Source: Hadesarchaea archaeon
GTDB lineage: Archaea; Hadarchaeota; Hadarchaeia; Hadarchaeales; Hadarchaeaceae
Assembly: GCA_030619825.1 (NCBI GenBank)
Contig: JAUXAS010000001.1
Coordinates: 10,141 to 74,140, forward strand
DNA length: 64,000 nt
Direction: 5' to 3'
The position numbers and the translations under genes were made by a program. Numbering within the stretch: the first letter of the stretch is position 1; each line of letters begins with the position of its first letter. The notes beneath the pieces were generated by a model. That model made no database searches and was not told where the DNA came from. It saw only the letters and a list, made by a program, of their open reading frames with translations. Below are positions 7,780 to 42,539 of the stretch, one piece after another.

Positions 7780-7813
7780 GACAACAGATTTCTCTCATTT
7801 TTTGTAACAACCC

Positions 7814-9292
7814 GTGGCAAGCGTTAATAGCCCCGATTGTGATAGGCTAAAAGAAAGCTATAAATTCACGGGAGATTCTAGCATGGGTCGTGCTGAAATC
7901 CGGAGGTTCCAGCAAGCAGCCGAGGAGGTAGTTTCATTCCTCAAGCCGAGGCTGGGCGGTGATACCCGCGCCAAGATTATTTCCCACACGGATGCAGACG
8001 GGATAGCCGGAGCAGCGATCCTCGCGAGATGTCTTTACACGTATAACGTTTCATTCAACGTCAAGTTCACACGTCCGTTAAAGCCGGACGAGGTGGCCGA
8101 GCTCGGGAAGGAAGGCCACGACCTCTTCGTGTTCATCGACCAAGGAAGCGGCCAGATCGAGGCGATCCACAAGTTCATCCTCAGCCAAAAGCGCGATGTC
8201 GTCGTGATCGACCATCACCCGGGGGAGTTCCCCGAGCACCCCAACTTAGCTTACTTGAACCCTCACGCGTGCGGGCTCAACGGCGCGAAGGATGTGAGCG
8301 CCAGCGGGGCCGTCTATTCCATCGTGGAGCACATAGACCGAAGCTTTAGACCGCTCGTGGGGCTCGCGGTCGCAGGGGCGATCGGTGACCGCCAGGAGTT
8401 CTTCTCGGGGTTCACGGGAGTCAATGACACCTTGGTAAAGCGGGCGATTGATTTGGGTTTCTTGCGCGTGGGCGAGGGGCTGAAACTCATCGGGCGCACC
8501 CTGAGCCCAGTGGTGGAATGCCTCAGGCTTACGACGAGGCCCTACATCTCCGGGATCTCCGGAAACCCTTCCGCCTGTCGTTCCCTTGTCGACACACTCG
8601 GCCTCTCGCCATCTAGTACCTTGGTCGAGCTAGGCTCGGAGGCGGAGCGGAGGCTGCGGGATGCTCTCTTCGCCCGAGTTGGTTCCCTAGCGACCAGCGA
8701 GGAGTTCTGCCACACGCTTTGGGGGACAACCTATAGCTTGGCCACGGAAGACCTTGTCGGCCCCCGCGACCTCAGGGAGTACGTGGCGGTGCTCGACGCG
8801 TGCAGAGACCTCCAAAAGTCGGAGCTCGGCTTCGCCGTGGCGGTGGGCGACCGGACGGCACAGACCGAGGCGCTGGCCCTCCTGAACAGCAGTCAGGAAC
8901 AAATGCTGGAGGCGTTAGGATGGCTCGTCTCCCACCTCGACACCTTCAAGCTCACGCCAAGCTTGAGGTACATCTACTTCGGCAGTGCAGTGAATTCAGC
9001 AATGGTGGGTGAGGTGCTCTCGCTCGCGATGGAATCGGGGTTGGTCACAACGGATCGCCCGATTGTCGGCATCGCGGACGCCGGCGCGGAGGAGTTGAAG
9101 ATTTCGGCTCGAAGTACACCCGGCTTGGCGATGCTGGGAATAAATGTTGGGCGGGCCTTGGCGAGGGCTGCAGGGATAGTGGGAGGTAAGGGCGGGGGCC
9201 ACGATGTAGCGGCTGCAGCCCGAATACCGCGGGAACGGATGAACGAATTTTTAGCCAAGCTGGACCAAGTGCTCTCGGGAGGCGACAGATGA
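7814..9292 (+). CDS. RecJ-like DHH-family nuclease (GAN/RecJ homologue), copy 1
   Basis: DHH motifs (ISHTDADGIAGAAIL, VVIDHHPG) and C-terminal DHHA1 (GGKGGGHDVAAAA). The true start is possibly the internal ATG (MGRAEIRR, ~7883). Confidence 0.7.
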   Translation: MASVNSPDCDRLKESYKFTGDSSMGRAEIRRFQQAAEEVVSFLKPRLGGDTRAKIISHTDADGIAGAAILARCLYTYNVSFNVKFTRPLKPDEVAELGKEGHDLFVFIDQGSGQIEAIHKFILSQKRDVVVIDHHPGEFPEHPNLAYLNPHACGLNGAKDVSASGAVYSIVEHIDRSFRPLVGLAVAGAIGDRQEFFSGFTGVNDTLVKRAIDLGFLRVGEGLKLIGRTLSPVVECLRLTTRPYISGISGNPSACRSLVDTLGLSPSSTLVELGSEAERRLRDALFARVGSLATSEEFCHTLWGTTYSLATEDLVGPRDLREYVAVLDACRDLQKSELGFAVAVGDRTAQTEALALLNSSQEQMLEALGWLVSHLDTFKLTPSLRYIYFGSAVNSAMVGEVLSLAMESGLVTTDRPIVGIADAGAEELKISARSTPGLAMLGINVGRALARAAGIVGGKGGGHDVAAAARIPRERMNEFLAKLDQVLSGGDR

Positions 9293-11210: not shown

Positions 11211-12467
11211 TTGCCTGAACTCAAACTCAAGCGCGGCGATGTGGTAATGCTCGAAGGGCAGCTCAGCCTCGAAGTAAGAGAAGGTGAGGTGTTGATAAGC
11301 GGCGGACTCCGTGGGAAGGGGAGCCGGACCGTCATACCTCGCGCGAAGTCGGTGCCCCTTGAAGCTGAAGGAGATGCACTCGTTGCATACACGCTTGGGC
11401 AGGACGGGAAGGTCGAGCAGCTATCGAAGCGGACTATTCCTCGCGAATGGGATGCGCTCATCTCGGAGGTCATCCAGCAAAGGCCCAAAAAAATATTAGT
11501 GATGGGAAGCGTCGATGTCGGCAAGAGCTTCTTCACAACCTACTTGGCAAACACCATGCTTAGGCATGGGCTTCGGCCGGGGGCGATTGATAGCGACGTG
11601 GGGCAATCTGATGTCGGCCCTCCGGCGACGATGGGGCTGGGAATCCTCGAGCAGCCCGTTGCCCAGCTCTACGAGGTCCCACTCTCGAGCGCTTACTTCG
11701 TGGGCTCGATGTCTCCCTCAGAGCACATGCTTGAGTTCGTCGTGGGGGTGAAGTGGTTGGTTGAACACGGTTTGAAGAAGGCGGACTCGGTAATCGTTAA
11801 CACCCCCGGCTGGATTTTCGGTGGCCCCGGTCGATCTCTTCAGCTTTATACCTTGGAGACGATTGACCCAGATATCGTGGTCGCTATCCAGCGCGAGGGG
11901 GAGCTCGAGCATCTGCTATCGAGCGTTCCTAGAGCGAGGGTAAGGCGGCTACCGGTTTCGAAGAAGGTCAGATCCCGCTCCTCCGGAGAGCGCGCGTCAC
12001 TGCGGGCGATGACGCTCGGGAAGTACTTTGAGGATGCTGGGAAGCTTGTCCTAAACTTGCGGAAGGTAAGACTCAAACGCTGCTACCTCCACACGGGCAG
12101 GCCCATCGATGTTGGAACGCTTGGGGTGAAGGCGCAAATAGTCCACGCGGAGCAGATGCCTGAGGGGATGTTAATTGTCATAAAAAGAAGGGTGGATAAG
12201 AGTGTAATTCAGGAGCTCGAGGCGAGATTCGGGCATGTGAGGACCATAATCCAAGGCAGCGAGCGAAACATGATGGTGGGATTGACGAACGATGCAAACG
12301 AGATGCTGGGCATAGGAATAATCGAGCGAATAGACTACGAACGAGGTCGGATGGTAGTGCTCACACCCGTCAAAAATGCGGACGAGGTCGCTGCCGTGCA
12401 GTTTGGCTCGATGCGGATAAAGCCGGACGGCGAAGAAATAGGCACCATAAGACAAGGCACATTCTGA
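11211..12467 (+). CDS. clp1: polynucleotide 5'-hydroxyl kinase Clp1/Grc3 family
   Basis: P-loop ILVMGSVDVGKSFFTTYLAN and Clp1-type GAIDSDVGQSDVGPP segment; TTG start. Confidence 0.7.
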   Translation: MPELKLKRGDVVMLEGQLSLEVREGEVLISGGLRGKGSRTVIPRAKSVPLEAEGDALVAYTLGQDGKVEQLSKRTIPREWDALISEVIQQRPKKILVMGSVDVGKSFFTTYLANTMLRHGLRPGAIDSDVGQSDVGPPATMGLGILEQPVAQLYEVPLSSAYFVGSMSPSEHMLEFVVGVKWLVEHGLKKADSVIVNTPGWIFGGPGRSLQLYTLETIDPDIVVAIQREGELEHLLSSVPRARVRRLPVSKKVRSRSSGERASLRAMTLGKYFEDAGKLVLNLRKVRLKRCYLHTGRPIDVGTLGVKAQIVHAEQMPEGMLIVIKRRVDKSVIQELEARFGHVRTIIQGSERNMMVGLTNDANEMLGIGIIERIDYERGRMVVLTPVKNADEVAAVQFGSMRIKPDGEEIGTIRQGTF

Positions 12468-31949: not shown

Positions 31950-32582
31950 ATGGGGGTAGAGTTGAGGGAAATGCTTGAACGAATGCGCAAGCACTTCGAT
32001 GCCCAAGGGGAGCTCCGGGAGCGGGTACTCGACGCCTCGCGAGAGGTCATCAGGGCTTCCGCCCGGGCTATAGCCGCGGCCCATCGAGGTGACCGATCGA
32101 GCGCCGACGAACTCCTAACGAATGCTCGCGATGCACTTACAACTCTCACGAAGGCCGTGAAAGCTGAGCCCCACTTGGCTGATTCCGGCATCATCCTCAT
32201 GGCTTACCAGGAATACGGTGAAGCCTTGGTAGTTCAGGCACTAATCCGGGATGGAAAACTATTGACGCCCGAGGAGCTTAGCATCCCCTACAAACCCTAC
32301 CTCGCGGCCCTCGCCGATGCCGCGGGTGAGCTCAGGCGGCACACGCTTGACTTGATAAGGGCAGACGAGGTTGATCGAGCGGAGCAAGCGCTCAAGTTCA
32401 TGGAGGAAATCTTCGAGCTGCTTATGGAGTTCGACTACCCTGACGCTATTTTACCCGGGATGAAGCGGAGGCAGGATATGGTCCGGCGGGTGCTGGAGAA
32501 AACCCGCGGTGACCTGACGATCGCGCTCAGGCAACAAAGGCTTGAACGGGCGCTTAAACGCGTCAAGTGGGAGAAAAAGTAG
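31950..32582 (+). CDS. all-helical protein, possibly translin family
   Basis: 210-aa helical protein with a YQEYGEALVVQALIRDGKLLTPEEL segment reminiscent of the translin core; weak assignment. Confidence 0.3.
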   Translation: MGVELREMLERMRKHFDAQGELRERVLDASREVIRASARAIAAAHRGDRSSADELLTNARDALTTLTKAVKAEPHLADSGIILMAYQEYGEALVVQALIRDGKLLTPEELSIPYKPYLAALADAAGELRRHTLDLIRADEVDRAEQALKFMEEIFELLMEFDYPDAILPGMKRRQDMVRRVLEKTRGDLTIALRQQRLERALKRVKWEKK

Positions 32583-32724
32583 GTTAATTATTATTTTCGG
32601 CGGCGCCATATCACCAAAATAGCTTAAACGCTGTTCTTTAGAATAAAATTCGGAGAAAAGACAAAGTTCTTTTACTCAAAAAGAAAGAACGAAAGATTGC
32701 AAGAGATATATAGTTGGGGAAAAG

Positions 32725-34308
32725 ATGAAGTTCGATATAAGAAAAATTAAAGAGAAAGCGAAGAAGGACTACGAAAAAGCTTGGTTAGAAACAGCACGGC
32801 TCCTGAAAACAAGAGGCAAGTTTTTCACCTTAATTAAAAAGTCGAGTCAACATCCTCTGCCAGAACTCGCAACTAAAGTGAGGGAAGTTCTTTTAAGCAT
32901 GGGTTTTACTGAAGCTTATCTCCCAACGATAGTCGATGTTAATGAAGTACGGCGCCAATATGGTCCTGAAGCGCTAGTGATCCTAGACAGAGTATTCTTC
33001 CTAGCAAGTCTTGACCGGCCCGATATTGGAATAAGCAAAAATAAACTCGGGAAAATAAATGATATAATCGCCGGGTTCACAAAAGTAGAAAAATTGAAGG
33101 AAATTTTTAGAAAATACAAAAAGGCAGAAATCAGCTCCGATGATTTGATTGAGGTAATGGTCAAGGAGCTTGATGTAGGGGAGGTGCAAGCCACTAAACT
33201 CATCTCAGAAGTTTTTCCTGAGTTTAAGGCGTTGAAGCCACTCCCAACTAACTTGACTTTGAGATCTCACACCACTTCTCTTTGGTTTCCGGTCCTTTCT
33301 GAAATGATCAAACGTGAGTCCCTACCATTACAACTCTTCTCGATTGGTCAAAAGTTTAGAAGGGAGCAGCGACTTGACCCGACGCATCTCTATGAGTCAT
33401 GGACAGCCTCGGTGGTCATCGTTGCTGAAAAGATAAGCCTTGAAGATGGGGAGCGAATAACTCGAGAAATATTGAGCAAGCTGGGATTCGCAGAGGTGAA
33501 GTTCTCGATGAAAGCCGCAACCTCGAAGTACTACGCACCGCGAACGGAATTCGAGGTGTTTGTCAAGCACCCTCGCACGGGAGAGTACCTTGAAGTCGGC
33601 AATGCTGGTTTTTACAGCCCAGTGGCGCTGAGCAATTATGATATCGCTTTCCCCGTCTTCAACCTCGGTATAGGGCTCGAGCGCGTGTTGATGATTGAGA
33701 CCGGTGAGGCGGACATGCGCGTGCTTGTCTACCCTTACCTTTACAAGCCAGCCGAGTTTTCGGACGCGCAATTGGCTAAAATGATCAAGCTCGAGCGCGC
33801 GCCCGAGAGCGAGGTAGGGCGAGAGATCGCTACAGCAATCGCACGCGTGGCCGAGCGGCACGCCAACGAGCCAAGCCCGTGCGAGTTTCCAGCTTTTGAA
33901 GGTAAATTGTTGGATAGGCAAGTGATAGTTAAGGTGATCGAACCAGAGCGTGGCACGAAGCTCATCGGGCCGGCAGGATTCAACGAAGTCTATGTTTATG
34001 GAGGAAACATCGTCGGGGTTCCTCCAAAGGGATGGGAGCAAGATGAGTTTTTGAATGAAGTTCGGACCAAGGGTACTTCGACCGGCATCCGATACATTGA
34101 TGCTTTTGCAGCACTCGTGGCGAGCGAGATCGAGCAAGCTGGTCGCGGAGGCAAACGCCAAGTCAAGGTCCGTGTGAGAAACGTGAAGCTTCCGAGTGAC
34201 CTTAATTTAGCGATTGAGGAGGCAGCGCAGCGCTACGTCACCTCGAACAAGAAGCGCATTGACGTTCGCGGGCCAGTTTTCACAACGGTGGTCGCTGAAT
34301 TCAGCTAG
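32725..34308 (+). CDS. sepS: O-phosphoseryl-tRNA(Cys) synthetase (SepRS)
   Basis: Collinear with methanogen SepRS: TNLTLRSHTTSLWF (cf. TTLTLRSHMTSGWF), class II core, C-terminal IDVRGPVFTTVVAEF. Confidence 0.85.
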   Translation: MKFDIRKIKEKAKKDYEKAWLETARLLKTRGKFFTLIKKSSQHPLPELATKVREVLLSMGFTEAYLPTIVDVNEVRRQYGPEALVILDRVFFLASLDRPDIGISKNKLGKINDIIAGFTKVEKLKEIFRKYKKAEISSDDLIEVMVKELDVGEVQATKLISEVFPEFKALKPLPTNLTLRSHTTSLWFPVLSEMIKRESLPLQLFSIGQKFRREQRLDPTHLYESWTASVVIVAEKISLEDGERITREILSKLGFAEVKFSMKAATSKYYAPRTEFEVFVKHPRTGEYLEVGNAGFYSPVALSNYDIAFPVFNLGIGLERVLMIETGEADMRVLVYPYLYKPAEFSDAQLAKMIKLERAPESEVGREIATAIARVAERHANEPSPCEFPAFEGKLLDRQVIVKVIEPERGTKLIGPAGFNEVYVYGGNIVGVPPKGWEQDEFLNEVRTKGTSTGIRYIDAFAALVASEIEQAGRGGKRQVKVRVRNVKLPSDLNLAIEEAAQRYVTSNKKRIDVRGPVFTTVVAEFS

Positions 34309-35179
34309 TTTTGAAAAGATCCCTGAGTTTTTTCATCCCCTTCCGGCCAGTTTCCAGTGGGTGCTTGGGGTTCCAGAGTTCAGCTATCAGCAACCCACCG
34401 TAGTTTATCGCTCGCAGGGCCTCAACTACGGGTTTGAAATCGATATCGCCATCACCCGGTAGCAGGTGATCATCGTCTTTGCCGTGGTTGTCGTGCACAT
34501 GCACATGAACCAGATGCTCGCGCAGGCCCTCGATGGCTTCAGCGATCGCTAGCCCGGTAGCCTTCCTTCCGGACCTTCGTTCGGCCAGATGGGCGTGTCC
34601 GATGTCGAACGCCACTTTGGCTCCTTCAAGCTCGAGCACGAGTCGCTTGAGTTCTTCGACGGTCGATGGGTAGGTGGCGAGCTGCCCACCCGCATTCTCG
34701 AGAGCTAGGGTCACGCCTCGTTCTCTCGCGTAGGGTAGGCATTGCTCGAGAAACCTGCGATATCGTCGTTTCGCCCCCTCCAAGAAATCCTTGGCCTCTG
34801 GGACGGGGCACCTCCCGAAATGGAGCACGACGATCTCCCCTCCGAGCGCGCGGCAGGCATCAATGCTCCGCCCGACCTGCTTGAGCGTCAGCTTCTGGAG
34901 CTCGCGGTGATGACTGGCTGGATTCAAATCCCAGAAGCTCCCGTGCACCGAAACCCGGAGCCCATGAGCATCGAGGAGTTCCTTTATACCAGAGAGCTTG
35001 CGCTGGTCGTAGTCGGGCGGGAAGTGCGGGGCATCGTAGATTATTTCAACACATTCCGCGCCAAGCTTCGCTGAAAACTTGACAATGTCATCGATGGAGG
35101 CATTTGGAAACAGCAGGGAGGAGAGTCCTAGTTTCATCGCGTTGGGTTTGGATAGTTTTATCTTATCAAACTCCTGCAA
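34301..35179 (-). CDS. sugar phosphate isomerase/epimerase (xylose isomerase-like TIM barrel)
   Basis: AP-endonuclease-2/xylose-isomerase fold motifs (…VHVHVHDN…, …ALENAG…); the start may be the internal ATG (MKLGLSS). Confidence 0.65.
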   Translation of the reverse strand: MQEFDKIKLSKPNAMKLGLSSLLFPNASIDDIVKFSAKLGAECVEIIYDAPHFPPDYDQRKLSGIKELLDAHGLRVSVHGSFWDLNPASHHRELQKLTLKQVGRSIDACRALGGEIVVLHFGRCPVPEAKDFLEGAKRRYRRFLEQCLPYARERGVTLALENAGGQLATYPSTVEELKRLVLELEGAKVAFDIGHAHLAERRSGRKATGLAIAEAIEGLREHLVHVHVHDNHGKDDDHLLPGDGDIDFKPVVEALRAINYGGLLIAELWNPKHPLETGRKGMKKLRDLFKTS

Positions 35180-36003
35180 AATTCTAAATTGTTTTTAAGG
35201 TCTTCCTCGGATGCGTAAACCCCTTTTCTTGTATGGAAAGTTTCTAGGACAACATATCTGCAACTTGTCTTTTTAATTGCCCTAACGATGCTTTCAAAAT
35301 TCAAGTTCCCTTTTCCAATAACAAAGTGATCTATTGGTTTCAAGTTGTCTCCAAGTAAGCAATCGTGGAGGTGAACGGTCAAAACACGATCTTTAAAAAG
35401 GTCGAGCCAATCATCTATCTCCAGTTTTTCGCCTGACCCCCCTTTTGCATGTTGAATTTCCCATTTAGATACAACAGCGTGACCAACGTCGAAGCAAAAA
35501 TTTAGGGCACTGATATTATCTAGAAGAAGCTTGATATCTCTTGGACGCCCGAAGAGGCGGCTAGGATTATTTTCAATCGTAACCGGAAAACTTCCCCCAA
35601 AATTTACTATCGTGCGGGTCGTTTCTAACGCTTTATTAAAAATTTTCTTTCTGATTTCTTCGAAGCTAGAAGTTGTAATGTGTCCGATTTGGTGAAAGTT
35701 GAAATACAGAGGATTAAACCCTTCCGCAAATTTCAAGCATTTTTCGTAAATCTTCAGGCAAGCATCGGAAATCTCATCTCTTGGATGGAAGATAACTTTC
35801 CCAGACCAAGGTCCGTGGAATGATATTTCTAATCCATACTCTTCCTTTAGTTTTTCCAACAATCCTGTCTCCTCACTTGTCAGTTGATCCGGCCAAGGGT
35901 AGTCCAAGGAAAGTTCGACAAAGTCAAATCCCAGCCTACGTGCTTTTTCAAATGTAGGTCGTAGGGGCCTATCCCCATACCAGACACTTGTCGCAAATTT
36001 CAT
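35158..36003 (-). CDS. sugar phosphate isomerase/epimerase (xylose isomerase-like TIM barrel), low-GC paralogue
   Basis: Same fold signature (LTVHLHDC, FDVGHA) but about 40% GC versus ~60% for its neighbour. Confidence 0.65.
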   Translation of the reverse strand: MKFATSVWYGDRPLRPTFEKARRLGFDFVELSLDYPWPDQLTSEETGLLEKLKEEYGLEISFHGPWSGKVIFHPRDEISDACLKIYEKCLKFAEGFNPLYFNFHQIGHITTSSFEEIRKKIFNKALETTRTIVNFGGSFPVTIENNPSRLFGRPRDIKLLLDNISALNFCFDVGHAVVSKWEIQHAKGGSGEKLEIDDWLDLFKDRVLTVHLHDCLLGDNLKPIDHFVIGKGNLNFESIVRAIKKTSCRYVVLETFHTRKGVYASEEDLKNNLEFCRSLIR

Positions 36004-36054
36004 GGTTCAAAATCTGGGATTGGTCCTTAAAAATTCGCCTAGTGGGAGGCAATG

Positions 36055-36717
36055 TCAGTGAGATTTCATCGCCCGCGTGGCGAGTTCGTGGGCGGCTCGC
36101 AAAGGTTCCGGCAGACGAAATCCTCGTGTCGTTTCAAGCGCAATCCGAATGGCCGTTTTGAGCGAAAGTCCGTGGCCGATGCTCACGTATACCGGCCTGT
36201 TGGAGGGCTGCGTTCGAAGCACGGCTCCTATGATTTCCCCGTTATCTTTGAGTAGCGAGCACGCGCCGCGTTCCCGCTTCGGCTCTTCAGCCCTCCCGCA
36301 CAATCTGTTCTTAGCTACCCCTAACGTCGGCTTGTTCAGCGTCACCCCAAGGTGGCATGCCAGACCGGCTCGGCGGGGGTGCGCTAACCCTTGAGCACCT
36401 ACCATGTAAACATCCGCATCCATACCTTTGACTGCCTTCAGCATCCCCTCGAGCTCTCGAAAGGCCAGAAAGGTCGGGATGTATGGGAACCTCATCCTGA
36501 CTCCGACGGCTTTTCGTTCGAGTACCTCAAGACTTTTGTAATCGAGCACCGCGCAGGCGGCGTAGGCCAGCCCGCCTCGCGCGAAGGAGATGTCACACCC
36601 GGCGATGCGCTTGAGCTTCTTGAAACGATTCTTGCGCACTACCCGCTTGGCTACCCGTGCTTGGAGCCGAGCCAACTCGTCGAGGTCCAACTTCGGGGGG
36701 CGTAGGATGGGAAGCAT
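36055..36717 (-). CDS. nfi: endonuclease V (deoxyinosine 3' endonuclease)
   Basis: GCDISFARG, PYIPTFLAFRE, HPRRAGLACHLGV motifs; start placed at the internal ATG (MLPILRP). Confidence 0.8.
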   Translation of the reverse strand: MLPILRPPKLDLDELARLQARVAKRVVRKNRFKKLKRIAGCDISFARGGLAYAACAVLDYKSLEVLERKAVGVRMRFPYIPTFLAFRELEGMLKAVKGMDADVYMVGAQGLAHPRRAGLACHLGVTLNKPTLGVAKNRLCGRAEEPKRERGACSLLKDNGEIIGAVLRTQPSNRPVYVSIGHGLSLKTAIRIALETTRGFRLPEPLRAAHELATRAMKSH

Positions 36718-36778
36718 TTTGGGCACCTTCACTGGCAATTTTGCGGAGAAGTTATTAATTTTGAGCACATAACGGATT

Positions 36779-36961
36779 TTGGTAAATATGCGGGCGAAAG
36801 GGCCAAAGTGCAAGCTTTGCGGCAAGACCGTCCAGCTGATGAGCTACGACGCCGCATATGTCAAAATAGTGAAGCCCGGTGAGGTGAAGGCGAGCTTCGT
36901 CTGCTGGAAGTGCGCGGAGAAACTGCTGGGCGACAAGCTTGGAGAGATCACGAGCGCGTAG
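36779..36961 (+). CDS. small zinc-ribbon protein
   Basis: CKLCG…CWKC four-Cys arrangement; 60 aa; immediately upstream of the primase-polymerase gene. Confidence 0.45.
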   Translation: MVNMRAKGPKCKLCGKTVQLMSYDAAYVKIVKPGEVKASFVCWKCAEKLLGDKLGEITSA

Positions 36962-36979
36962 GGCAAGCTGGGTGAGCTA

Positions 36980-38059
36980 TTGTCGAAAGCGACACCTGAG
37001 GACCACGCGCTCATGACGCTTGCCATCAAACGCCGCGGCAAGTTCGTGGACGTACCACACGTCCAGGAGAAGCTAAACCGCGATGCGGGTGAAAAGTTTT
37101 CGGATGAGGAAACACAAGAACTCCTAGGTGCGCTCGAGAAAAAAGGTTGGGTCGAGAGTAAAGCCGGTGAGTACGCGATTACCGATTCCGGGCGCAAGCA
37201 TTTTGACAAGCGGTGGCGGGATGTCAGGGGGCAGCTGAACCAGGATTACCTCAAGGTCTACCGCGCAAAGCAGTACTATCCCCACGTGGTCGATGCCCTG
37301 CTCGAGTTCTGCCGCGACCGCTGGGTGTCGGTCTTTCGCCTCTTCACCGAGCGCGCGTGGCTCCAGCGAAAGTTAGGCCCCCGCTACATCACGATAAAAA
37401 GTGCGAAGGACGTGCAGCGGTGGCTAGACGTGCACGGCATCGATTTCATCCCTTACATCCACCGCGTGGACGCAGATCGCCCTGACTGGCTCGTGATCGA
37501 CTTCGACGCGGGCAAAAAAGTTGAGCTCGATCGGACGAAGGGGGTGGTCGAAGGGGCATGTAAGGTGCTCGCGGGATACGGAATCGAACCGGCGATCAAG
37601 TTCAGTGGCTCGCGAGGCTTCCAGTTCTGGGCGCAGTTCGAGCGCCATGAGTTGCCGAAGGGGTACAGGCCGAAGCAGCTTCGGACCGAACGAAGGGAGC
37701 GAAATGCTTTTAATTTTTATGCGGACATCGTGCGATTCATCGAGTCACGCGTAGCGGAACGCTTGCCGGGGCTGACGACGGCCGAGACGGCCAAGAAGGA
37801 AGCGCGAACCGACAAAGTCTTGTTCGATGCATCCATCATCAAGCCCATGGGTGACGTGCGGGCACCCTACAGCATGCATTACAAAACGGGGCTAATTTCA
37901 ATGCCGTTGGGGTTGAAGGAGCTCAAGCGTTTCAAGCTCGAGCAGGCAGACCCGGAGCTCGTGGTGAAGCGATATCAGGAGCGGGGGAAAGAGTTCGCAC
38001 TCAGGCCAGCCAATGGCAAAGAACTCTTTGAGGCCGTTGTCGAGTGGTGTAGGAGCTGA
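36980..38059 (+). CDS. archaeo-eukaryotic primase superfamily (Prim-Pol/PriS-like) protein with N-terminal winged-helix domain
   Basis: AEP motif I LVIDFDAG, motif II FSGSRGFQFW (Gln in place of the usual His), motif III DASIIKPMGDVRAPYSMHYKTGL (cf. PriS/LigD-Pol R.P.S.H.KtG). No Zn knuckle between motifs I and II. The N-terminal ~90 aa look like a wHTH. Confidence 0.6.
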   Translation: MSKATPEDHALMTLAIKRRGKFVDVPHVQEKLNRDAGEKFSDEETQELLGALEKKGWVESKAGEYAITDSGRKHFDKRWRDVRGQLNQDYLKVYRAKQYYPHVVDALLEFCRDRWVSVFRLFTERAWLQRKLGPRYITIKSAKDVQRWLDVHGIDFIPYIHRVDADRPDWLVIDFDAGKKVELDRTKGVVEGACKVLAGYGIEPAIKFSGSRGFQFWAQFERHELPKGYRPKQLRTERRERNAFNFYADIVRFIESRVAERLPGLTTAETAKKEARTDKVLFDASIIKPMGDVRAPYSMHYKTGLISMPLGLKELKRFKLEQADPELVVKRYQERGKEFALRPANGKELFEAVVEWCRS

Positions 38060-38075
38060 TTTTTCCTCCTTATAA

Positions 38076-38429
38076 ATGACCTCCACGCAAAGCCTTGGCG
38101 GGGAAATGGGACTGATTCACTACCAGACCCTTGAAACCGTCGGCCCCGAGGAGCTTCGAGCGCTGCGGGCGATCAAGGAGGAGTTCAACGCGCGGCGGGC
38201 ATTCAGTGAGCGCATCAGACTCTGGCGGAAGTCGGACATCCTAGAGGGCATGGAGCCCTGCGGCGCGCGCTGGGGCTTCACCCGGGTGCGGGATGACGAG
38301 GACAAACTTCGAATAGTTTTGACGGTTAGGCGCATGTCGCAGGCGACACCACACCTGACTTGGTTGCTCTGCGATGAGGGCGACGGCAACAGGGAAGTCG
38401 TGCTTAAAGGCGGCAAGCCCGTGGCCTAG
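38076..38429 (+). CDS. hypothetical protein
   Basis: 117-aa ORF between the Prim-Pol and Cas2-like genes; no recognisable motifs; the start may be the internal ATG (MGLIHYQ). Confidence 0.4.
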   Translation: MTSTQSLGGEMGLIHYQTLETVGPEELRALRAIKEEFNARRAFSERIRLWRKSDILEGMEPCGARWGFTRVRDDEDKLRIVLTVRRMSQATPHLTWLLCDEGDGNREVVLKGGKPVA

Positions 38430-38446
38430 TGTCTCAAATAGGACAG
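38429..38446. promoter_or_regulatory. copy A of palindromic motif GTGTCTCAAATAGGACAG
   Basis: Lies at the 5' end of the Cas2-like gene; same motif as at 38690, 38711 and 39431. Confidence 0.4.
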
Positions 38447-38463
38447 GTGATGTCACGGCATAC

Positions 38464-38721
38464 TTGCTGGTCTACGACTTAGATGGTCGAAGCAAGGCAA
38501 GGCGAAGGATGAATCGCTACCTGAAGCGTAATGCGCGGCTAGTGCAACATTCGGTGTGGAGGTTTCAAGATCTGGCTGCGTTGCGAGCTGCTGCCGAGCG
38601 CGTGCTCACGGCGGAGGGCAAGGTACTGGCATTCGTTGAGTCGGATCGGATTCTTCTGACATCGAGGGAGGTTAGACGGCTTTTACCCGGTGTCTCAAAT
38701 AGGACGGAGCGTCCTAAATAG
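38464..38721 (+). CDS. Cas2-like protein (orphan; no Cas1 or CRISPR array in the window)
   Basis: (L)LVYDLDGRSKARRRMNRYLKRNARLVQHSVWRF…VLAFVESDRILL matches the Cas2 N-terminal strand-helix-strand consensus (vYDi..d.rRr.v.k.L..yG.RvQ.SVF). Proposed TTG start. Both gene ends overlap copies of the GTGTCTCAAATAGGAC motif. Confidence 0.5.
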   Translation: MLVYDLDGRSKARRRMNRYLKRNARLVQHSVWRFQDLAALRAAAERVLTAEGKVLAFVESDRILLTSREVRRLLPGVSNRTERPK

Positions 38722-38725
38722 GACA
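38690..38725. promoter_or_regulatory. tandem copies B and C of the motif (GTGTCTCAAATAGGAC-ggagc-GTCCTAAATAGGACA), centres 21 bp apart
   Basis: Two half-site-bearing 15-16-mers two helical turns apart at the 3' end of the Cas2-like gene, upstream of the low-GC membrane-protein gene. Confidence 0.4.
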
Positions 38726-38823
38726 TGTGCTGCAGTTCGCTTCATGCTGAGTTAAGTGAAATGCTCACACGGGGCGCAAAATTATAAAAAATGAAAAATA
38801 CATGAAATCCAAGGAGATAAAAA

Positions 38824-39321
38824 ATGCAAGCAGATAATATCTATAAAGAGAAAATATTCTCAAAAGGTATAACAGGTATATTGTCCGCTGTTACAGCTAG
38901 CTTTCTTTTTGTATTGGTCTATCAGATTTTGGTAGAACCAATTGGCGTTCGTCCTGCACCAAACTGGTTTTTCCTACTTGTGTTTCTACTGTTTCTAGGA
39001 GTTACGATTAATTTTAGTAGACTGGTTATCAGAATGACGCCCCGATCTATCGCTGTTGGTTATGGAATTTTTAAACACACAATCATCTGGGAGGATATCG
39101 AGGGCTGTTATTCAGATGAGGCTTCAACCATTAGATATGGAGGTTGGGGCATACGCTTAGGAAGAGTTAAGGGAAAATGGAGATTGGTGTACAATGTTAT
39201 GGGAAGTCCTCGAGTTGTGCTATCATTGAGGGAAGGTAGATTCAGAGAGTTTGTGTTTTCAACTAAAAGTCCTGAACAAGTAGTAAAAGTAGTTAAGCAA
39301 CAGATAGGTGGAATAAAATGA
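38824..39321 (+). CDS. membrane protein with C-terminal PH-like (bPH/DUF304-type) domain, low-GC
   Basis: Two TM helices, then a small beta-rich domain; about 38% GC; own AT-rich promoter; flanked by GTCCTAAATAGGACA direct repeats. Confidence 0.45.
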   Translation: MQADNIYKEKIFSKGITGILSAVTASFLFVLVYQILVEPIGVRPAPNWFFLLVFLLFLGVTINFSRLVIRMTPRSIAVGYGIFKHTIIWEDIEGCYSDEASTIRYGGWGIRLGRVKGKWRLVYNVMGSPRVVLSLREGRFREFVFSTKSPEQVVKVVKQQIGGIK

Positions 39322-39430
39322 ACACCCCTTTGTTCGCACTATCACCTAACACAGCATACACGGCTCACTTCGTTCGCCAAAATTCTTGCCCCACCTAAAT
39401 GGGATGGCCGGTGAAGAACTGCCGATGGTG

Positions 39431-39448
39431 GTGTCCTAAATAGGACAC
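39431..39448. promoter_or_regulatory. copy D of the motif, perfect-arm palindrome GTGTCC-TAAATA-GGACAC
   Basis: About 80 bp upstream of the comC-like ATG, at the right edge of the low-GC cassette. Confidence 0.4.
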
Positions 39449-39511
39449 ATGATACCAGCCACTTTTTTATTGCTTGGGCGATGAAATTTTAAGGCACGTG
39501 TTCGAGAGAGC

Positions 39512-40561
39512 TTGGGAGATAGGATGATACTCACATTTGACCGGGAAAAAACAATCATACGCACCTTGCTGCAAAAGCTCGGTGCTTCGGGTGAGGAAGC
39601 CAATGCCACAGCAGAAGTGCTGGCCGAGGGTGATCTGCGCGGCTTCGCATCGCACGGCCTGCTCCGCCTTCCATACATCCTGCGCGCGCTCAAGCGAGGC
39701 ACGATCGCCGTCAAAGCAGAGGTCAAAGTTGTCCGAGAAACTCCAGCAACTGGTCTCATCAACGGCGGGCACGGTTTGGGGCACTACGTTGTGACGCGCG
39801 CGATGCGCCTCGCGATCGAGAAGGCGAAGCAGCAGGGCGTGGCTGCGGTCGGCGTTTACAACTCTAACCACTTCGGAATCGCGGGCTACTACGCCGAGCT
39901 GGCGATGCGCGAAGGGCTAATAGGCATTGTGACGACGACGACCGATGCGCTGGTTCATCCCTGGGGCGGCGTCGAACCCTTACTCGGCACCAATGCACTT
40001 GCGATAGGCCTACCGACCGAGCCCCCCGTGCTGCTTGACATGGCGATGAGCGTCGCGGCTCGAGGAAAACTCGTGAAGGCGATGAAGGAGGGCAAGCCCA
40101 TCCCCGAAAATTGGGCAATCGACTCCGGGGGCAAGCCGACGACAGACCCAGCAAAGGGGTTGGAGGGTGCCCTAAGTCCATTCGGCGGACCAAAGGGTTA
40201 CGCTTTAGCTTTCGTGCTCGAGTTGCTTGCCGGCCCTCTCGTGCACGCAGCTGCGGGTAAAGAAGTTAAGGGAACGCTAGAGCCTGTCGAAGGCTTCTGC
40301 ACAAAGGGCGATTTCATGATCGCGATCGACCCGAAAGCTTTCGTCGCGCAGGAGGAATTTCGGGCTCGGGCGCGGGAATTCATCGAGCAAGTCAAGTCCT
40401 CGCAGAAAGTGCCGGGCGTTGGGGAAATAATGGTCCCTGGTGAGCCCGAGCAAAAAACGCGCGAGCGACGCCTGCGGGAGGGTATTCCAATCTCGGATGA
40501 GGTTTGGATCGAGCTTGAACAAATCGCAAAGGAGTTAGGAGTGGATCTAAAAAGCATGTGA
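39512..40561 (+). CDS. comC: malate/L-lactate dehydrogenase-2 family (Ldh_2) enzyme, ComC-like (sulfolactate dehydrogenase)
   Basis: Ldh_2 family motifs (GFASHGLLRLP, SNHFGIAGYY, GGPKGYALAF); in archaea this family includes CoM-biosynthesis ComC. Confidence 0.65.
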   Translation: MGDRMILTFDREKTIIRTLLQKLGASGEEANATAEVLAEGDLRGFASHGLLRLPYILRALKRGTIAVKAEVKVVRETPATGLINGGHGLGHYVVTRAMRLAIEKAKQQGVAAVGVYNSNHFGIAGYYAELAMREGLIGIVTTTTDALVHPWGGVEPLLGTNALAIGLPTEPPVLLDMAMSVAARGKLVKAMKEGKPIPENWAIDSGGKPTTDPAKGLEGALSPFGGPKGYALAFVLELLAGPLVHAAAGKEVKGTLEPVEGFCTKGDFMIAIDPKAFVAQEEFRARAREFIEQVKSSQKVPGVGEIMVPGEPEQKTRERRLREGIPISDEVWIELEQIAKELGVDLKSM

Positions 40562-40637
40562 AGTCCGAAAGCCCCTTCCAATGAGTCAATATTTGCGGCC
40601 GGGCAACGTCTCAACCACCGGTGCCAGCCTTTCGGGA

Positions 40638-41201
40638 TTAGTGGCGCTTGAGATAGGCGATGAGCTTTCGAGAGATCAGCGGCTTGCTCTTGACGAGCGG
40701 GAATGTGTAAGGCAAGAAGGTCGATTGGACTTTGCTTATTTGGATTTCGAGCCCATGTTGCACGGGTACTTCTTCCAATGATTTACCCTCGCTTACCTGC
40801 TTTGCCATGTAGGTTGCGTTGTCGATCGCAAATTGTTCCTTGCCGAGGTTTCTCGCGGACGCCCTAGAAAGGATTCGGGTAAGCAGTTCCCTCGTTCGCC
40901 CGAGTGGGGGCTCCTCACCTAGGATGCCCCCTATGACTATCACCCTCATACCGCGCATGTCGGTCGGCGATAGCTTTTTTCTCGCGCGGGGGTCGAGCAC
41001 GATGAGTTCGTGCTGTTTGAACAGCTCGCAGGCACGCTTGCGTTCGACCCGCGCAATCTTGGCAAGTTTACGAAATTCGCCTTTCTTTTTTACATTGGTT
41101 ATGAGCAACCTCTTTCTCCCGACGATTCGCGCTGCGTGTGAATACTCAATGTGAAGCCACTCGCTCAGTTTCGGCTCTAAATGCTCAATGACGAAGAGCA
41201 T
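40638..41201 (-). CDS. conserved hypothetical protein (possible SPOUT/Tsr3-like fold)
   Basis: ELIVLDPRARKKLSPTDMRGMRVIVIGGILGEEPPLGRT resembles the substrate-pocket region of SPOUT/Tsr3-type RNA-modification enzymes, but the N-terminus does not match; weak. Confidence 0.3.
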   Translation of the reverse strand: MLFVIEHLEPKLSEWLHIEYSHAARIVGRKRLLITNVKKKGEFRKLAKIARVERKRACELFKQHELIVLDPRARKKLSPTDMRGMRVIVIGGILGEEPPLGRTRELLTRILSRASARNLGKEQFAIDNATYMAKQVSEGKSLEEVPVQHGLEIQISKVQSTFLPYTFPLVKSKPLISRKLIAYLKRH

Positions 41202-41210
41202 GGTCTCAGC

Positions 41211-42539
41211 TTAAAGCCTGCGCAACACAGCCTCAGCAGCAACCACGAGGGGCTCGATACAATCACTCATCGGCGGGGCGTAGCAGTACTCAATTCGTGC
41301 CAGCTCGTCAATGGTCACGTTCTGCTTGATGGCGAACGCGAGCATGTTTACCCGCTCGGCCGCGCCATCGCCGATGACCTGTCCACCGATGACCCTTCGC
41401 TCCTTAGGCTTGACGATAAGCTTTACGATGATGGGCTCGGCCCCCGGGTAGAAGTAAGGTTTGTTGAGGGTACGAATGCGTCCCGCGATGGTTTCTATGC
41501 CGGCATCGCGAGCGTTTCGCGTCGTTAACCCGGTTGCCGCGATTTCCAGCCCATAGGCCGAGGAGACGATTGTGTTAAGCACACCTGGAAAGACCTCGTC
41601 ACCACCAGCAGCGTTGGCTCCGGCGATCTTACCCATCCGTATTGCGGTCGTCGCAAGCTGGCTCAGGATGGGGCGCTTTGTCAGGAAGCAACTCGATTCG
41701 ACACAGTCACCCGCCGCATATACATCCGGGATATTAGTTCGGAGGTGATCATCGACTTTTATCACCCCCAGGGTGCCTAGCTCGACCCCAGCACTCACCG
41801 CTAGCTCAATATCAGGCTTGACACCCGTGCAGAGAACGACGAGGTCAGCTTGGATCTCTTCTTCGCCCACGACCACCGAGCTAACTTTCTTCTCACCCCG
41901 GAGCTCTTTGACCGGTTTACCTAGGATAGTTGGGATGCCGACTCGGCTGAGCTGGTCAAGTACTGCTTCGGACATATCGGGATCAAGCATCCAAGGGAGC
42001 ACGTTCGGTTGCATCTCAACGAGCGTGGTCTCTAGTCCGCTCTCCCGGAGCGCGGCGGCGGCCTCAAGACCTATTGGGCCACCACCCACGACGAGGGCCT
42101 TGTTCGCCCGGGGCAGTGCCGCGAGGATTTCCTCCCCGTCGCGCATCGTTCGAAGGGTGAACACGTTGCTAAGGTCGGAGCCGGGGATAGGGGGCCTAAG
42201 CGGCAGGCTGCCCGTAGCAATGACGAGTGAGTCGTACGGTACTTTTCCCTTTCGAAGGGTCTTGCGATCCTGAATTTCGACGATTTTGGCGTCGGTATCG
42301 ATTGCCTTTGCCTCGGTGCCGATGTGAACATCTACGCCAGGGAGCTTGGATGCCGCCTCAACGAGGTGACGGATGTGGGGAACATCGCCCCCTATCGCGA
42401 AGGGGAGGCCACAGGGGTGGTAGGTGGCGTACATTCGCCTTTCGATGACCGTGACCTTCGCTTCCCGATCCACCATGCGGGCGGTCGCCGCTGCCGTCAG
42501 CCCAGCCGATTGGAACCCTATGATGACAACTCGCCTCAT
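41211..42539 (-). CDS. FAD-dependent pyridine nucleotide-disulfide oxidoreductase (NADH oxidase / CoA-disulfide reductase family)
   Basis: FAD GxGxxG (VVIIGFQSAG), redox Cys (YHPCGLPFAIGG), NAD GGGPIGLE, C-terminal dimerisation domain. Confidence 0.8.
   Translation of the reverse strand: MRRVVIIGFQSAGLTAAATARMVDREAKVTVIERRMYATYHPCGLPFAIGGDVPHIRHLVEAASKLPGVDVHIGTEAKAIDTDAKIVEIQDRKTLRKGKVPYDSLVIATGSLPLRPPIPGSDLSNVFTLRTMRDGEEILAALPRANKALVVGGGPIGLEAAAALRESGLETTLVEMQPNVLPWMLDPDMSEAVLDQLSRVGIPTILGKPVKELRGEKKVSSVVVGEEEIQADLVVLCTGVKPDIELAVSAGVELGTLGVIKVDDHLRTNIPDVYAAGDCVESSCFLTKRPILSQLATTAIRMGKIAGANAAGGDEVFPGVLNTIVSSAYGLEIAATGLTTRNARDAGIETIAGRIRTLNKPYFYPGAEPIIVKLIVKPKERRVIGGQVIGDGAAERVNMLAFAIKQNVTIDELARIEYCYAPPMSDCIEPLVVAAEAVLRRL

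Follow-up and report, generated by a model that had tools for sequence, protein, structure and literature searches.

Palindromic sites that co-vary with a solo Cas2-like gene in Hadarchaeota

Palindromic sites of 16 bp flank and overlap a small stand-alone gene of the Cas2/VapD fold (here Cas2L) in Hadarchaeota, and the class of the sites follows the Cas2L clade, not that of the primase AEP or of the upstream gene orf107. We describe this arrangement in the window, meaning the whole 64-kb stretch of a Hadesarchaea contig (chromosomal DNA) analyzed here, and across 34 Cas2L loci (single loci are given as L-numbers). We consider it plausible, with confidence a little short of even, that the sites are cognate double-stranded DNA binding sites of a Cas2L dimer that serve autoregulation or form a nucleoprotein array; that Cas2L is the binder, DNA the target and regulation the outcome is in each case what we infer as most likely. 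That a Cas2-family protein specifically recognises an array of palindromes flanking its own gene, as DNA or RNA and independently of Cas1 and CRISPR, we regard as possible rather than probable. Among the core CRISPR proteins Cas2 is the one understood least, and its stand-alone relatives (VapD) are known only as toxins. Should Cas2L indeed read these sites, no earlier member of the Cas2 family would be known to bind nucleic acid sequence-specifically, and the module would provide a compact natural set of protein-site specificities in five or six classes, relevant, if true, to how Cas2 and palindromic repeats first became associated. Such a module of Cas2 and repeats would be self-contained and rapidly diversifying, and is possibly a new addiction or regulatory element; it is not described in the literature that we searched for stand-alone Cas2 with palindromes or for Cas2 in Hadesarchaea. 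The gene cassettes of a preliminary description of this DNA, which it took to be delimited by the palindromes, appear to be two different things, namely a built-in Cas2L module and a decayed integron-type cassette.

Cas2L and its sites

Cas2L in the window matches the Pfam Cas2 family PF09827 (E 6e-4, 20.4 bits, below the 23.8 cut-off), TIGR01573 (16.6 bits, below the 24.5 cut-off) and the PADLOC Cas2 profile (4.6e-5), and some homologues carry a precomputed PF09827 match. An AF2 model (pLDDT 86.3) has the topology E-H-E-E-H-E-H, and its best 50 Foldseek matches in the PDB are all Cas2 or VapD, with probabilities of 0.92-1.0 and query-normalised TM-scores of 0.38-0.57. Asp8 in the motif YDL, at the end of beta1 and thus at the catalytic position, is nearly invariant among 27 homologues. 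The family profile retrieves only 29 cluster representatives from 1.84 billion proteins, so Cas2L forms a narrow, separate branch. Relatives start with ATG GCx TAC, which places the start of the window gene at an ACG codon; an ACG start is seen in four loci, and the gene is disrupted in L009, deleted in L008 and truncated in L012 and L004, and this frequent damage implies that whatever Cas2L does is dispensable.

Table 1. Features of the Cas2L module and the insert in the window (a slash in a sequence marks a junction).
Feature	Position	Strand	Description
orf107	38106-38429	+	Conserved Hadarchaeota protein, ferredoxin-like fold; usual upstream partner of Cas2L
Site A	38430-38445	+	TGTCTCAAATAGGACA; imperfect 'I' class
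Cas2L	38455-38721	+	88-codon stand-alone gene of the Cas2/VapD fold, by profile matches and AF2 model
Site B	38691-38706	+	TGTCTCAAATAGGACG; 'I' class; within the 3' end of Cas2L, +236 from its start
Site C	38710-38725	+	CGTCCTAAATAGGACA; 'P' class; 19 bp after B
Spacer left of insert, probably native	38726-38751	+	Ends at the G of G/TTAAGT
Integron-type gene cassette	38752-39384	+	38% GC; begins TTAAGTGAAATGC...
AT-rich promoter-like stretch of cassette	38778-38791		
165-aa membrane-protein ORF of cassette	38824-39321		
attC remnant of cassette	39322-39384		R'' core ACCTAAC at 39344-39350; 3' half deleted
Degenerate fifth copy	39391-39406	+	CCACCTAAATGGGATG, 10/16 matches; in native spacer right of insert
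Site D	39432-39447	+	TGTCCTAAATAGGACA; final array site

All four motif copies of the preliminary description are present. The palindrome TGTC-N8-GACA (core GTCYYAAATAGGAC) occurs four times within 1 kb, in one orientation, and nowhere else in the window; with up to two mismatches to the 14-nt core, the 64 kb contain sites A-D alone, or six matches counting the palindromic minus strand, versus a shuffle expectation of 0.82 (at least six matches in 0 of 100 shuffles). Site A fills the stretch from the orf107 stop codon to the Shine-Dalgarno sequence GGTGAT (38446-38451). Its reading in frame as VSNRT had come from a mechanical ORF (38374-38721) and is an artefact, since with the start at 38455 the site lies in the 25-nt gap between the orf107 stop and Cas2L. 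The Cas2L stop TAG (38719-38721) falls inside site C, which had been registered two bases further in, so that the earlier distance of 21 bp between B and C becomes 19 bp from start to start. Site D was correctly described as a perfect inverted repeat: it is part of an 18-nt palindrome, GTGTCCTAAATAGGACAC (39431-39448), which is the P-site 18-mer, the I-site 18-mer being GTGTCTCAAATAGGACAG. The degenerate copy has the AAATGGGA variant common to one L053 site and the upstream site of L018. Downstream of D a T6 run (39463-39468) is followed by a TATA-like aaattttaagg (39484-39494) of Ldh2, a terminator and a promoter as judged by eye, and the right flank of D, GATACCAGC...TTTTT, is also found in L003 and L044, 3' of their only P site. 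No Rfam family reaches its gathering score in the window (a sub-threshold Qrr match near D has an E-value of 3.3), and a sigma-70 and terminator scan of the window is uninformative, the host being an archaeon.

Across the Cas2L loci the motif is concentrated and its positions are fixed. Exact TGTC-N8-GACA sites number 96 in 48 kb around Cas2L and 6 in 548 kb of other sequence, an enrichment of approximately 180-fold. Relative to the ATG the sites lie at -25, +234/236 and +253/255 across the 34 loci. The -25 site begins 24-26 nt 5' of the ATG in 26 of the 34 and adjoins the Shine-Dalgarno sequence in nearly every locus, the in-gene site is found at +234 to +236 in most, and the third site, 19 bp past it, is followed by 0-6 additional copies. 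The I-19-P pair recurs in L001, L018, L019, L044, L047, L055 and L060. Start-to-start spacings of neighbouring sites include 19, 21, 30-34, 36-46 and 59-91 bp (gaps 3 to >70 bp), and at spacings of 19, 21, 30-34 and 36-46 bp helical phase is not strict. A and B, which keep to the same places (-25 and about +235) at the Cas2L loci, thus belong to the module itself and are not scars around an inserted gene.

The site is a 16-bp dyad, TG(T/A)(C/T)-N2-A-N2-T-N2-(G/A)(A/T)CA, with lineage-specific inner bases. By lineage the inner 8 bp are CTAAATAG, AAACGTTT, TTAGGTAA, CAACGTTG or YAACGTGA, and TGATACACGTGTGTCA with a distant homologue; each locus has one inner sequence, common to all its copies. 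In L026, where the Cas2L homologue is 34% identical, six copies of a different 16-bp palindrome are present, and the sequences between them are themselves duplicated (higher-order duplication). The 3' copy is read in varying frames among relatives, as VSNRT, CPK-stop or CLK-stop, so the motif is conserved whatever its reading frame and the conservation is at the nucleotide level.

The covariation with Cas2L is best seen in loci whose other genes are closely similar to those of the window. In L062, AEP (89%), orf107 (87%) and Ldh2 (92%) are highly identical to the window genes, whereas Cas2L is 43% identical and the motif is CAACGTTG; in L007 orf107 is 88% and Cas2L 59% identical, and the motif is AAACGTTT. 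In blastn comparisons with both loci, homology extends to the stop codon of orf107 (38418/38429) and is found again only from the Ldh2 promoter or ATG onward (39478/39524), which leaves Cas2L as the sole gene in the co-varying segment. Judged from these alignments, it is only the segment of sites, Cas2L and sites that is swapped, as one unit, relative to L062 and L007. Within the protein, the loop and helix alpha1 (residues 10-24, rich in Arg and Lys) vary by motif class. In the chimeric L016 protein an L062-like N-terminus is paired with a CAACGTTG site upstream, and a C-terminus resembling that of the window protein with CTAAATAA and TCAAATAG sites downstream. Covariation of gene and sites can also come from linkage together with array turnover by tandem duplication; all copies have a common orientation, and a higher-order duplication is seen in L026.

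The neighbouring genes do not track the sites in this way. The mechanical call of orf107 is a 117-aa ORF from 38076 with its stop TAG at 38427-38429, and a TATA-like ttataaat lies at 38070-38077 (by eye); most of its 48 homologues have 107 aa and start with MxLIHYQT. Its AF2 model (pLDDT 89.7) gives only weak, generic matches to dimeric ferredoxin-like proteins, with no HTH or RHH among them. Searches of orf107 against Pfam, NCBIfam and PADLOC gave no match, and those against PDB sequences gave nothing significant, a single nanobody match (E 0.23) being spurious. The gene lies directly 5' of Cas2L in 30 of 34 loci, co-oriented, with the stop 25 nt before the start in the window, and arrays with Cas2L are present without it in L019, L060, L061 and L026. 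AEP, with 64-93% identity in 36 Hadarchaeota genomes, is without the motif at the majority of its loci, and in L082 the Cas2L module lies away from AEP. Neither gene is therefore required for an array. The preliminary description had proposed operators of a dimeric winged-helix regulator, perhaps the N-terminal domain of AEP. Operator-like features hold up, in that the sites are dyad-symmetric and clustered and their class tracks one gene, but the AEP winged helix does not fit as binder, given the motif-free AEP loci, the different class beside the 89% identical AEP of L062 and the non-adjacent module of L082.

An integron-type cassette between sites C and D

The low-GC insert, for which we find the same GC content as reported earlier, does lie between C and D but has boundaries of its own. 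At its left end GTTAAGT (38751-38757) is followed by GAAATGCTCAC, likewise in L071 and L072, which fits the cassette boundary G/TTRRRY. Many bacterial and archaeal phyla have homologues of the insert ORF (54-92% identity), the 3' element keeps 84-91% identity between unrelated contexts, and ORF and 3' element occur together in at least six unrelated contexts across many phyla. In L070 the homologous element reads GCCTAAC...GTTATAT and folds as an attC hairpin (z -3.9), next to an attC with perfect GCCTAAC/GTTAGGC cores; a strict R''/R' regular-expression search recovers one attC element only, in L070. The window remnant, without the R' half, gives no folding signal (z -0.03), 71 bp of L041 are missing from the window, and in L041 and L064 the R' position reads GATAGC. 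No intI or other recombinase gene is present among the genes examined around the insert (35158-42539).

On this sequence comparison, the insert appears to be a solitary integron-type cassette, since decayed, that entered an array spacer at a G/AT-type secondary site, so that C and D bracket it incidentally. A second integron-type cassette sits in L009 at G/ATAGG within the Cas2L ORF, away from the motifs, and the two inserts are further cases in Hadarchaeota of single integron cassettes, shared across domains, that occupy secondary sites. The left spacer is seen in cassette-bearing relatives only, and its junction was compared with L070, L071 and L009; the idea that it is a collapsed preceding attC was dropped, because a native spacer with G/AT secondary-site insertion is simpler and parallels L009. 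A viral or plasmid origin finds no match: IMG/VR contains no relative of Cas2L and only nine single chance matches to the motif, and tblastn of Cas2L and the 165-aa protein against PLSDB plasmids found none.

What the sites may do

We favour reading the array as an integral cis-element of what would be a small 'solo Cas2' module in Hadarchaeota chromosomes, laid out as (orf107), site, Shine-Dalgarno sequence, Cas2L, a site in its 3' end, a 19-bp step, a further site, 0-6 more sites and a T-run. Cas2-family proteins are dimers, and a Cas2L homodimer would recognise the sites as double-stranded DNA, bind its own translation-start/5' region and coat the 3' flank; binding might put Cas2L under its own control, relative to the upstream gene, through a roadblock or occlusion of the TSS, and the bound sites could form a higher-order nucleoprotein array. 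DNA is favoured over RNA on three grounds: positions 7 and 10, unable to pair in a hairpin, are symmetrically conserved in 45 of 49 distinct sites; no bias towards G-U wobble is seen, pair 6-11 being A-C in 15 sites and G-U in 2; and two divergent TATA boxes enclose a site pair in L060 and L061 that is presumably untranscribed. Against Cas2L as a DNA reader, we know Cas2 and VapD as nucleases or a structural subunit and not as sequence-specific DNA binders, and the 88-aa Cas2 core is without a classical DNA-reading domain. Moreover, the -25 site is in most loci located within an operon rather than at the orf107 promoter, an uncommon position for an operator of transcription but one that would fit translational (RNA) control. 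The frequent damage to Cas2L and the lack of strict helical phase also count against this reading.

RNA hairpins in the orf107-Cas2L transcript are the competitor to be taken most seriously, although we judge them unlikely. The 5' hairpin at the Shine-Dalgarno sequence would then be a translational operator, and Cas2L would bind or cleave the 3' hairpins, which would act as stabilisers or as a cis-encoded neutralising RNA in the manner of type III toxin-antitoxin repeats. Cas2 and VapD proteins can be RNases, and Cas2L has kept its Asp8. The sites are in probably transcribed sequence (the intercistronic gap, the ORF 3' end and, lying between gene and T-run, the arrays), all in one orientation relative to Cas2L and with the -25 site abutting the Shine-Dalgarno sequence; perfect copies form 6-7-bp hairpins (D -10.4 kcal/mol, z -3.0; L019 -13.6, z -3.7), and arrays outlast the loss of Cas2L in L008 and L025, as antitoxins do. 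However, shuffled sequences fold as well as the imperfect sites do (A -4.0 kcal/mol, z -0.06), changes within a class often break pairs with no preference for wobble, the symmetry of positions 7 and 10 would fall in the loop, the L060/L061 pair lies between divergent promoters, and no Rfam family matches. Operators read by another protein, orf107 or an unlinked transcription factor, and controlling Cas2L and possibly Ldh2, we find quite unlikely. Dyads of 16 bp are what operators of archaeal transcription factors typically look like, orf107 is directly upstream in most loci, and the last site lies 8-41 bp before the Ldh2 TATA-like box in many. Yet orf107 is 87-88% identical at loci of different motif class, has no recognisable DNA-binding fold and is missing from four array-bearing loci; an unlinked factor would have to shift its specificity in step with a 1-kb segment that holds only Cas2L; and Ldh2 is not downstream of the arrays in L006, L008, L009, L019 and L060.

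The proposal of the preliminary description that the motifs are recombination or att-like sites marking inserted cassettes has become improbable; on this reading a site-specific recombinase, or Cas2L as nuclease, would insert, delete or exchange genes at them. Several loci can be read in its favour: Ion_trans_2 and TatD genes are bracketed by motif copies in L082, Cas2L was lost between motif copies in L008, the sites and Cas2L behave as an exchangeable unit, and two cassettes have inserted independently into a module of about 1 kb. The empty site with a single copy that it led one to expect does exist in L003 and L044, which have no insert and one hybrid site joining the left flank of C to the right flank of D, but contraction of the array, or a direct-repeat deletion, explains it equally well, and 16-bp direct-repeat deletions require no dedicated enzyme. 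The junctions speak against it, since the insert starts at an integron-type boundary 26 bp from site C and has an attC remnant, the right junction in L041 is G/ATAGC, 81 bp before D, and the L009 cassette is in the ORF and not at a motif. The module is also without a recombinase gene, homologous crossover at the motifs is impossible where modules of different motif class are exchanged, and fixed site positions argue for a built-in function. A degenerate or miniature CRISPR-like array beside cas2, or a dispersed repeat of REP/MITE type, is highly improbable. Palindromic repeats do adjoin a Cas2-family gene, but there is no periodicity in their gaps, the gene has one copy upstream and another within it, the 'spacers' of L026 are themselves duplicated, and the motif is not dispersed, being confined in the 64 kb to the array and at background frequency in the 548 kb of related sequence. 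The motif centre was also considered as the TATA box of a leaderless Cas2L mRNA, and rejected because other classes are G+C-rich at the centre and the distance does not fit.

Comparison with known systems

Archaeal integron cassettes, for which Ghaly et al. 2022 (PMC9668308) report attCs in 3-4% of Hadarchaeota genomes, resemble the insert in the order of a single promoter-proximal ORF and an attC-like imperfect palindrome with RYYYAAC/GTTRRRY cores, in the G/TTRRRY start and in the presence of the same cassette across bacterial and archaeal phyla. The insert differs in being solitary, at a secondary G/AT-type site, with half of its attC deleted and no intI nearby.

The Cas2L module resembles the VapD type II toxin-antitoxin systems (VapXD, VapWD, VapYD) in having a small upstream gene and, closely behind it, a gene of about 90 aa with a Cas2/VapD fold and a conserved N-terminal Asp, in its chromosomal, patchy distribution and in the frequent decay of the Cas2/VapD-fold gene. 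The VapW antitoxin has a ferredoxin-like fold (PMC11980593), as does orf107. Unlike in VapD modules, orf107 is not detectably similar to Cas2L or to antitoxins of solved structure (as an inactivated, VapW-like Cas2 paralogue it was rejected at an hhalign probability of 0.1%), and Cas2L lacks this partner in four loci. Operators or repeats are not mentioned in the VapD survey. No VapD system is known to us that has a co-varying palindrome array inside and downstream of the toxin gene.

With CRISPR Cas2 (PF09827/TIGR01573) the module shares the fold, the motifs YDL at the end of beta1, QxSVW/F and xDR, and adjacent palindromic repeats, the window protein scoring below the curated cut-offs. A CRISPR array has regular periodicity, unique spacers and repeats of about 23-50 bp, whereas the Cas2L sites are 16-18 bp long and irregular; no CRISPR-like tandem array or Rfam CRISPR repeat (CRISPR-DR) is found in the 64-kb window, and no cas1 is called among the neighbouring genes of the window or of the 12-18-kb contexts of L082 and L083, these neighbours being housekeeping genes. 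Type III toxin-antitoxin systems of the ToxIN kind are similar in placing a nuclease-fold gene beside short repeats specific to the cognate protein. Their repeats are regular and tandem, lie upstream of the toxin and fold into pseudoknots, unlike the irregularly spaced, dyad-symmetric sites of Cas2L, which have no wobble signature.

Operator, iteron or centromere-like arrays offer a further comparison, as in omega/ParR-type arrays and in papillomavirus E2, a ferredoxin-like dimer on ACCG-N4-CGGT. Compared with these, Cas2L has no RHH, HTH or E2-like homology, most of its sites are downstream of the gene, and its binding is putative. The likeness lies in multiple closely spaced dyads that lie around and within the gene for the presumed binder, pack at 19 bp when adjacent and change together with the protein.

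A palindrome array at a stand-alone Cas2-like gene

Four copies (A–D) of a 16-bp palindrome, TGTC-N8-GACA, occur at and beyond a stand-alone Cas2-like gene, Cas2L (Table), and these repeats are real and non-random. All four copies named in the preliminary description are present, and a search of the whole 64 kb with a 14-nt core (both strands, ≤2 mismatches) found A–D as its sole matches: 6 hits once the palindromic minus strand is counted, where 0.82 were expected and none of 100 shuffles gave as many. A repeat search treats A–D as a single family, spaced 261, 19 and 722 bp apart; the B–C spacing is therefore 19 bp, not the 21 bp between centres initially given. The in-frame VSNRT ascribed to copy A came from an ORF extending upstream of the real Cas2L start.

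Features around the palindromes, in gene order (window positions; sequences of A–D read directly from the region)
Feature	Position	Strand	Sequence or remark
Endonuclease V		minus	
60-aa Zn-ribbon protein			
AEP (primase-polymerase), 359 aa			winged helix + LigD-type primase-polymerase
orf107	38106–38429		small ORF, real length 107 aa
Copy A	38430–38445		TGTCTCAAATAGGACA
Cas2L	38455–38721	plus	Cas2-like ORF
Copy B	38691–38706		TGTCTCAAATAGGACG
Copy C	38710–38725		CGTCCTAAATAGGACA
165-aa ORF			low GC
Degenerate fifth copy	39391–39406		
Copy D	39432–39447		TGTCCTAAATAGGACA; within perfect 18-nt palindrome 39431–39448
Ldh_2-family dehydrogenase (Ldh2)			

Housekeeping genes, among them that for O-phosphoseryl-tRNA synthetase, are close by. 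AEP matched 36 Hadarchaeota MAG contigs at 64–93% identity, nearly all keeping the Endonuclease V–Zn-ribbon–AEP order, which identifies the window as Hadarchaeota chromosome and AEP as a core gene; the triad (36055–38059; about 36 Hadarchaeota genomes, L001–L036) appears to be a core set of genes for repair or replication, not a mobile-element primase. Thermoproteati carry AEP homologues at 33–36% identity. Only a subset of the 36 loci have orf107 and Cas2L. The mechanically called Endonuclease V ORF begins with a TTG at 36825 and shares 47 bp (36779–36825) with the beginning of the divergent Zn-ribbon ORF; because tblastn matches begin at residue 36–37 in many loci, translation of Endonuclease V probably starts more internally, which would make the overlap an artefact. 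GC content varies in patches, both within core genes and from one to the next (32550–33300, 35100–36000). SepRS has 36–41% GC in its 5' third against 50–57% in its 3' part, and of two neighbouring xylose-isomerase-like TIM-barrel genes one (35158–36003; 38–43% GC) is confined to close relatives, a pattern suggesting that sequence was often acquired, or introduced by gene conversion, from low-GC donors.

Among related loci (L numbers), the motif occurs only with Cas2L or a Cas2L remnant; a metagenome scan with a Cas2L alignment added 23 loci. Exact TGTC-N8-GACA sites number 96 in 48 kb around Cas2L, whereas the 6 counted in 548 kb of other sequence match what chance would give. Site positions are constant across Cas2L loci. 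The upstream site starts 25 nt before the ATG, straight after the orf107 stop, and reaches the Shine-Dalgarno GGTGAT; the 3' site lies at +234 to +236, within the 3' end of the ORF, often with a further site 19 bp beyond it; 0–6 additional copies follow this pair, and the array ends before a T-run. The 3' copy is read in differing frames by lineage (VSNRT, or CPK or CLK followed by a stop), so conservation acts at the DNA or RNA level. Relatives start Cas2L with ATG GCx TAC, including ATG in L001, L003 and L042–L044, whereas the window (38455–38457), L041, L045 and L046 have ACG; the ORF is otherwise intact, and the ACG is either a near-cognate start or early gene decay.

Arrays also occur without orf107 (L019, L060, L061, L026) and, in L082 from another Hadarchaeon, away from AEP, where the orf107–Cas2L–Ldh2 block does not adjoin it. 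Two native-GC genes (Ion_trans_2 and TatD DNase; 7697–8831) split the L082 array, and the TatD stop codon TAG lies immediately next to a motif copy, an arrangement also seen at the orf107 stop. Orphan arrays of 3–4 copies persist where Cas2L was lost or deleted (L008 7451–7566; L025 12190–12290). At five loci without Ldh2 downstream (L006, L008, L009, L047, L051), the last copy is still followed by CCAGAATTTTAAG (for example, L006 3035–3050), resembling the TATA-like box GAAATTTTAAGG of the window Ldh2 even though the next gene lies on the other strand and runs towards the array; CCAGAATTTTAAG may be a relic promoter or module boundary.

Site classes and Cas2L

The outer TGTC/GACA, A7 and T10 are constant, the other inner bases are lineage-specific, and all copies of a locus share one class. 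The window type is C(T/C)(A/T)AATAG; other classes are AAACGTTT (L004, L007, L025), TTAGGTAA (L019, L060, L061), CAACGTTG (L062 and the upstream site of L016), YAACGTGA (L059) and TGATACACGTGTGTCA (L026). In L026 (reverse strand, approximately 11868–12400 in reverse-complement coordinates), a 67-aa distant Cas2L homologue (34% identity) precedes six TGATACACGTGTGTCA copies, which form a duplicated three-site unit.

Class tracks the Cas2L clade rather than neighbouring genes. L062 is 89% (AEP), 87% (orf107) and 92% (Ldh2) identical to the window but only 43% in Cas2L, and L007 is 88% in orf107 but 59% in Cas2L; both differ from the window in site class. With blastn, the window loses homology to L062 and L007 at the orf107 stop codon (38418/38429) and regains it at the Ldh2 start or promoter (39524/39478), so the exchanged segment comprises only sites and Cas2L. 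The Cas2L loop and helix alpha1 (residues 10–24) vary by class. In the natural chimera L016, the N-terminal half belongs to the class of the upstream site, and the C-terminal half to a different class, that of the downstream sites. Sites and protein diversify together.

Origin of the low-GC insert

The low-GC insert described between C and D was confirmed (38% GC in a 53–63% background). Homologues of its 165-aa protein (54–92% identity) occur in Bacteroidales, Dehalococcoidia, Patescibacteria, ANME-1, Methanosarcinales and others; in every case the gene stands alone, and the surroundings are unrelated. The approximately 100 bp that follow the stop are 84–91% identical across contexts and, in L070, L071 and L065, show attC features: R'' (GCCTAAC or TCCTAAC), R' (GTTAGGC, GTTAAGC or GTTATAT) and an imperfect inverted repeat; the L070 element folds (z −3.9). 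Integron attCs have previously been reported in Hadarchaeota (PMC9668308). The cassette starts G↓TT(A/G) (arrow, junction), then GAAATG, in the window with GTTAAGT at 38751–38757, 26 bp past C. In L041 the cassette ends on the right at G↓ATAGC, 81 bp short of D; this junction and the attC 3' half are missing from the window through a 71-bp deletion (39384/39385; compare L041 4944–5014). From the attC 5' half, L046 and L069 have lost approximately 40 bp lying between direct repeats of TTCGTTCGC. The attC is decaying via different deletions from genome to genome.

L009 (7503–8330) carries a second, unrelated low-GC integron-type cassette, made up of a membrane-anchored ORF and an attC; it interrupts the Cas2L ORF at G↓ATAGG, and its attC is homologous to the one preceding the 165-aa cassette in L071 and L072. 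With it, a module of approximately 1 kb has taken up two independent integron-type cassettes, both at integron-type junctions (G↓TTAAGT/G↓ATAGC and G↓ATAGG) rather than at the palindrome. Contrary to the earlier reading, the motif copies are not cassette boundaries. Motif-mediated recombination is improbable, even though no intermediate array without the cassette was found, an absence that would suit such recombination. Insert-free relatives, which had been proposed as a check, do exist. In L003 and L044, an imperfect site, 19 bp and a perfect site lead directly into the flank of D; L042, L043 and L045 also lack the insert and have a different right flank. By flank identity L042, L043 and L045 nest within the cassette-bearing clade, with L003 and L044 as outgroups. 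The likely history is insertion into a multi-copy array (compare L053, L082 and the degenerate copy at 39391), later loss in L042, L043 and L045, and contraction of the L003 and L044 arrays. The repeats are the cis-array of a narrow solo-Cas2 module.

Proposed recognition of the sites, and known systems

The leading candidate mechanism is that a predicted Cas2L dimer binds the duplex sites in an autoregulatory or nucleoprotein role, a reading we hold tentatively. Perfect copies can form hairpins, and a role of the sites in RNA would suit their single orientation, the location of most copies within a probably transcribed region and the −25 site beside the Shine-Dalgarno, as in a translational operator. 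However, imperfect copies fold no better than shuffled sequence. Among 49 distinct sites, pair 7–10 is complementary in 45 although unable to pair within a hairpin, and deviations are mostly A-C at pair 6–11 (15 sites versus 2 G-U) but 10 G-U versus 4 A-C at pair 5–12, giving no consistent wobble signature. In L060 and L061, moreover, one site pair separates TATA-like boxes of divergent orientation; the gene that reads leftwards there encodes a DUF5698/DUF2179 protein. Together these observations favour recognition of a duplex dyad and leave the RNA role unlikely.

The orf107 model (pLDDT 90) is generic dimeric ferredoxin-like, with neither HTH nor RHH found and no detectable relatedness to Cas2L. 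No CRISPR array or known RNA family was found in the window. The best 50 PDB matches of Cas2L are all Cas2 or VapD, and its sequence scores against Cas2 models fall under curated cut-offs. Its family profile retrieved only 29 representatives out of 1.84 billion, including a 67–69-aa subgroup like the L026 protein (HMMER; P0218–P0233). We found no description in the literature of such a Cas2L and palindrome-array module, which is apparently undescribed and would gain interest should Cas2L turn out to bind its sites sequence-specifically. A survey of VapD describes the antitoxins VapX, VapW and VapY, but not repeat arrays (PMC11980593).
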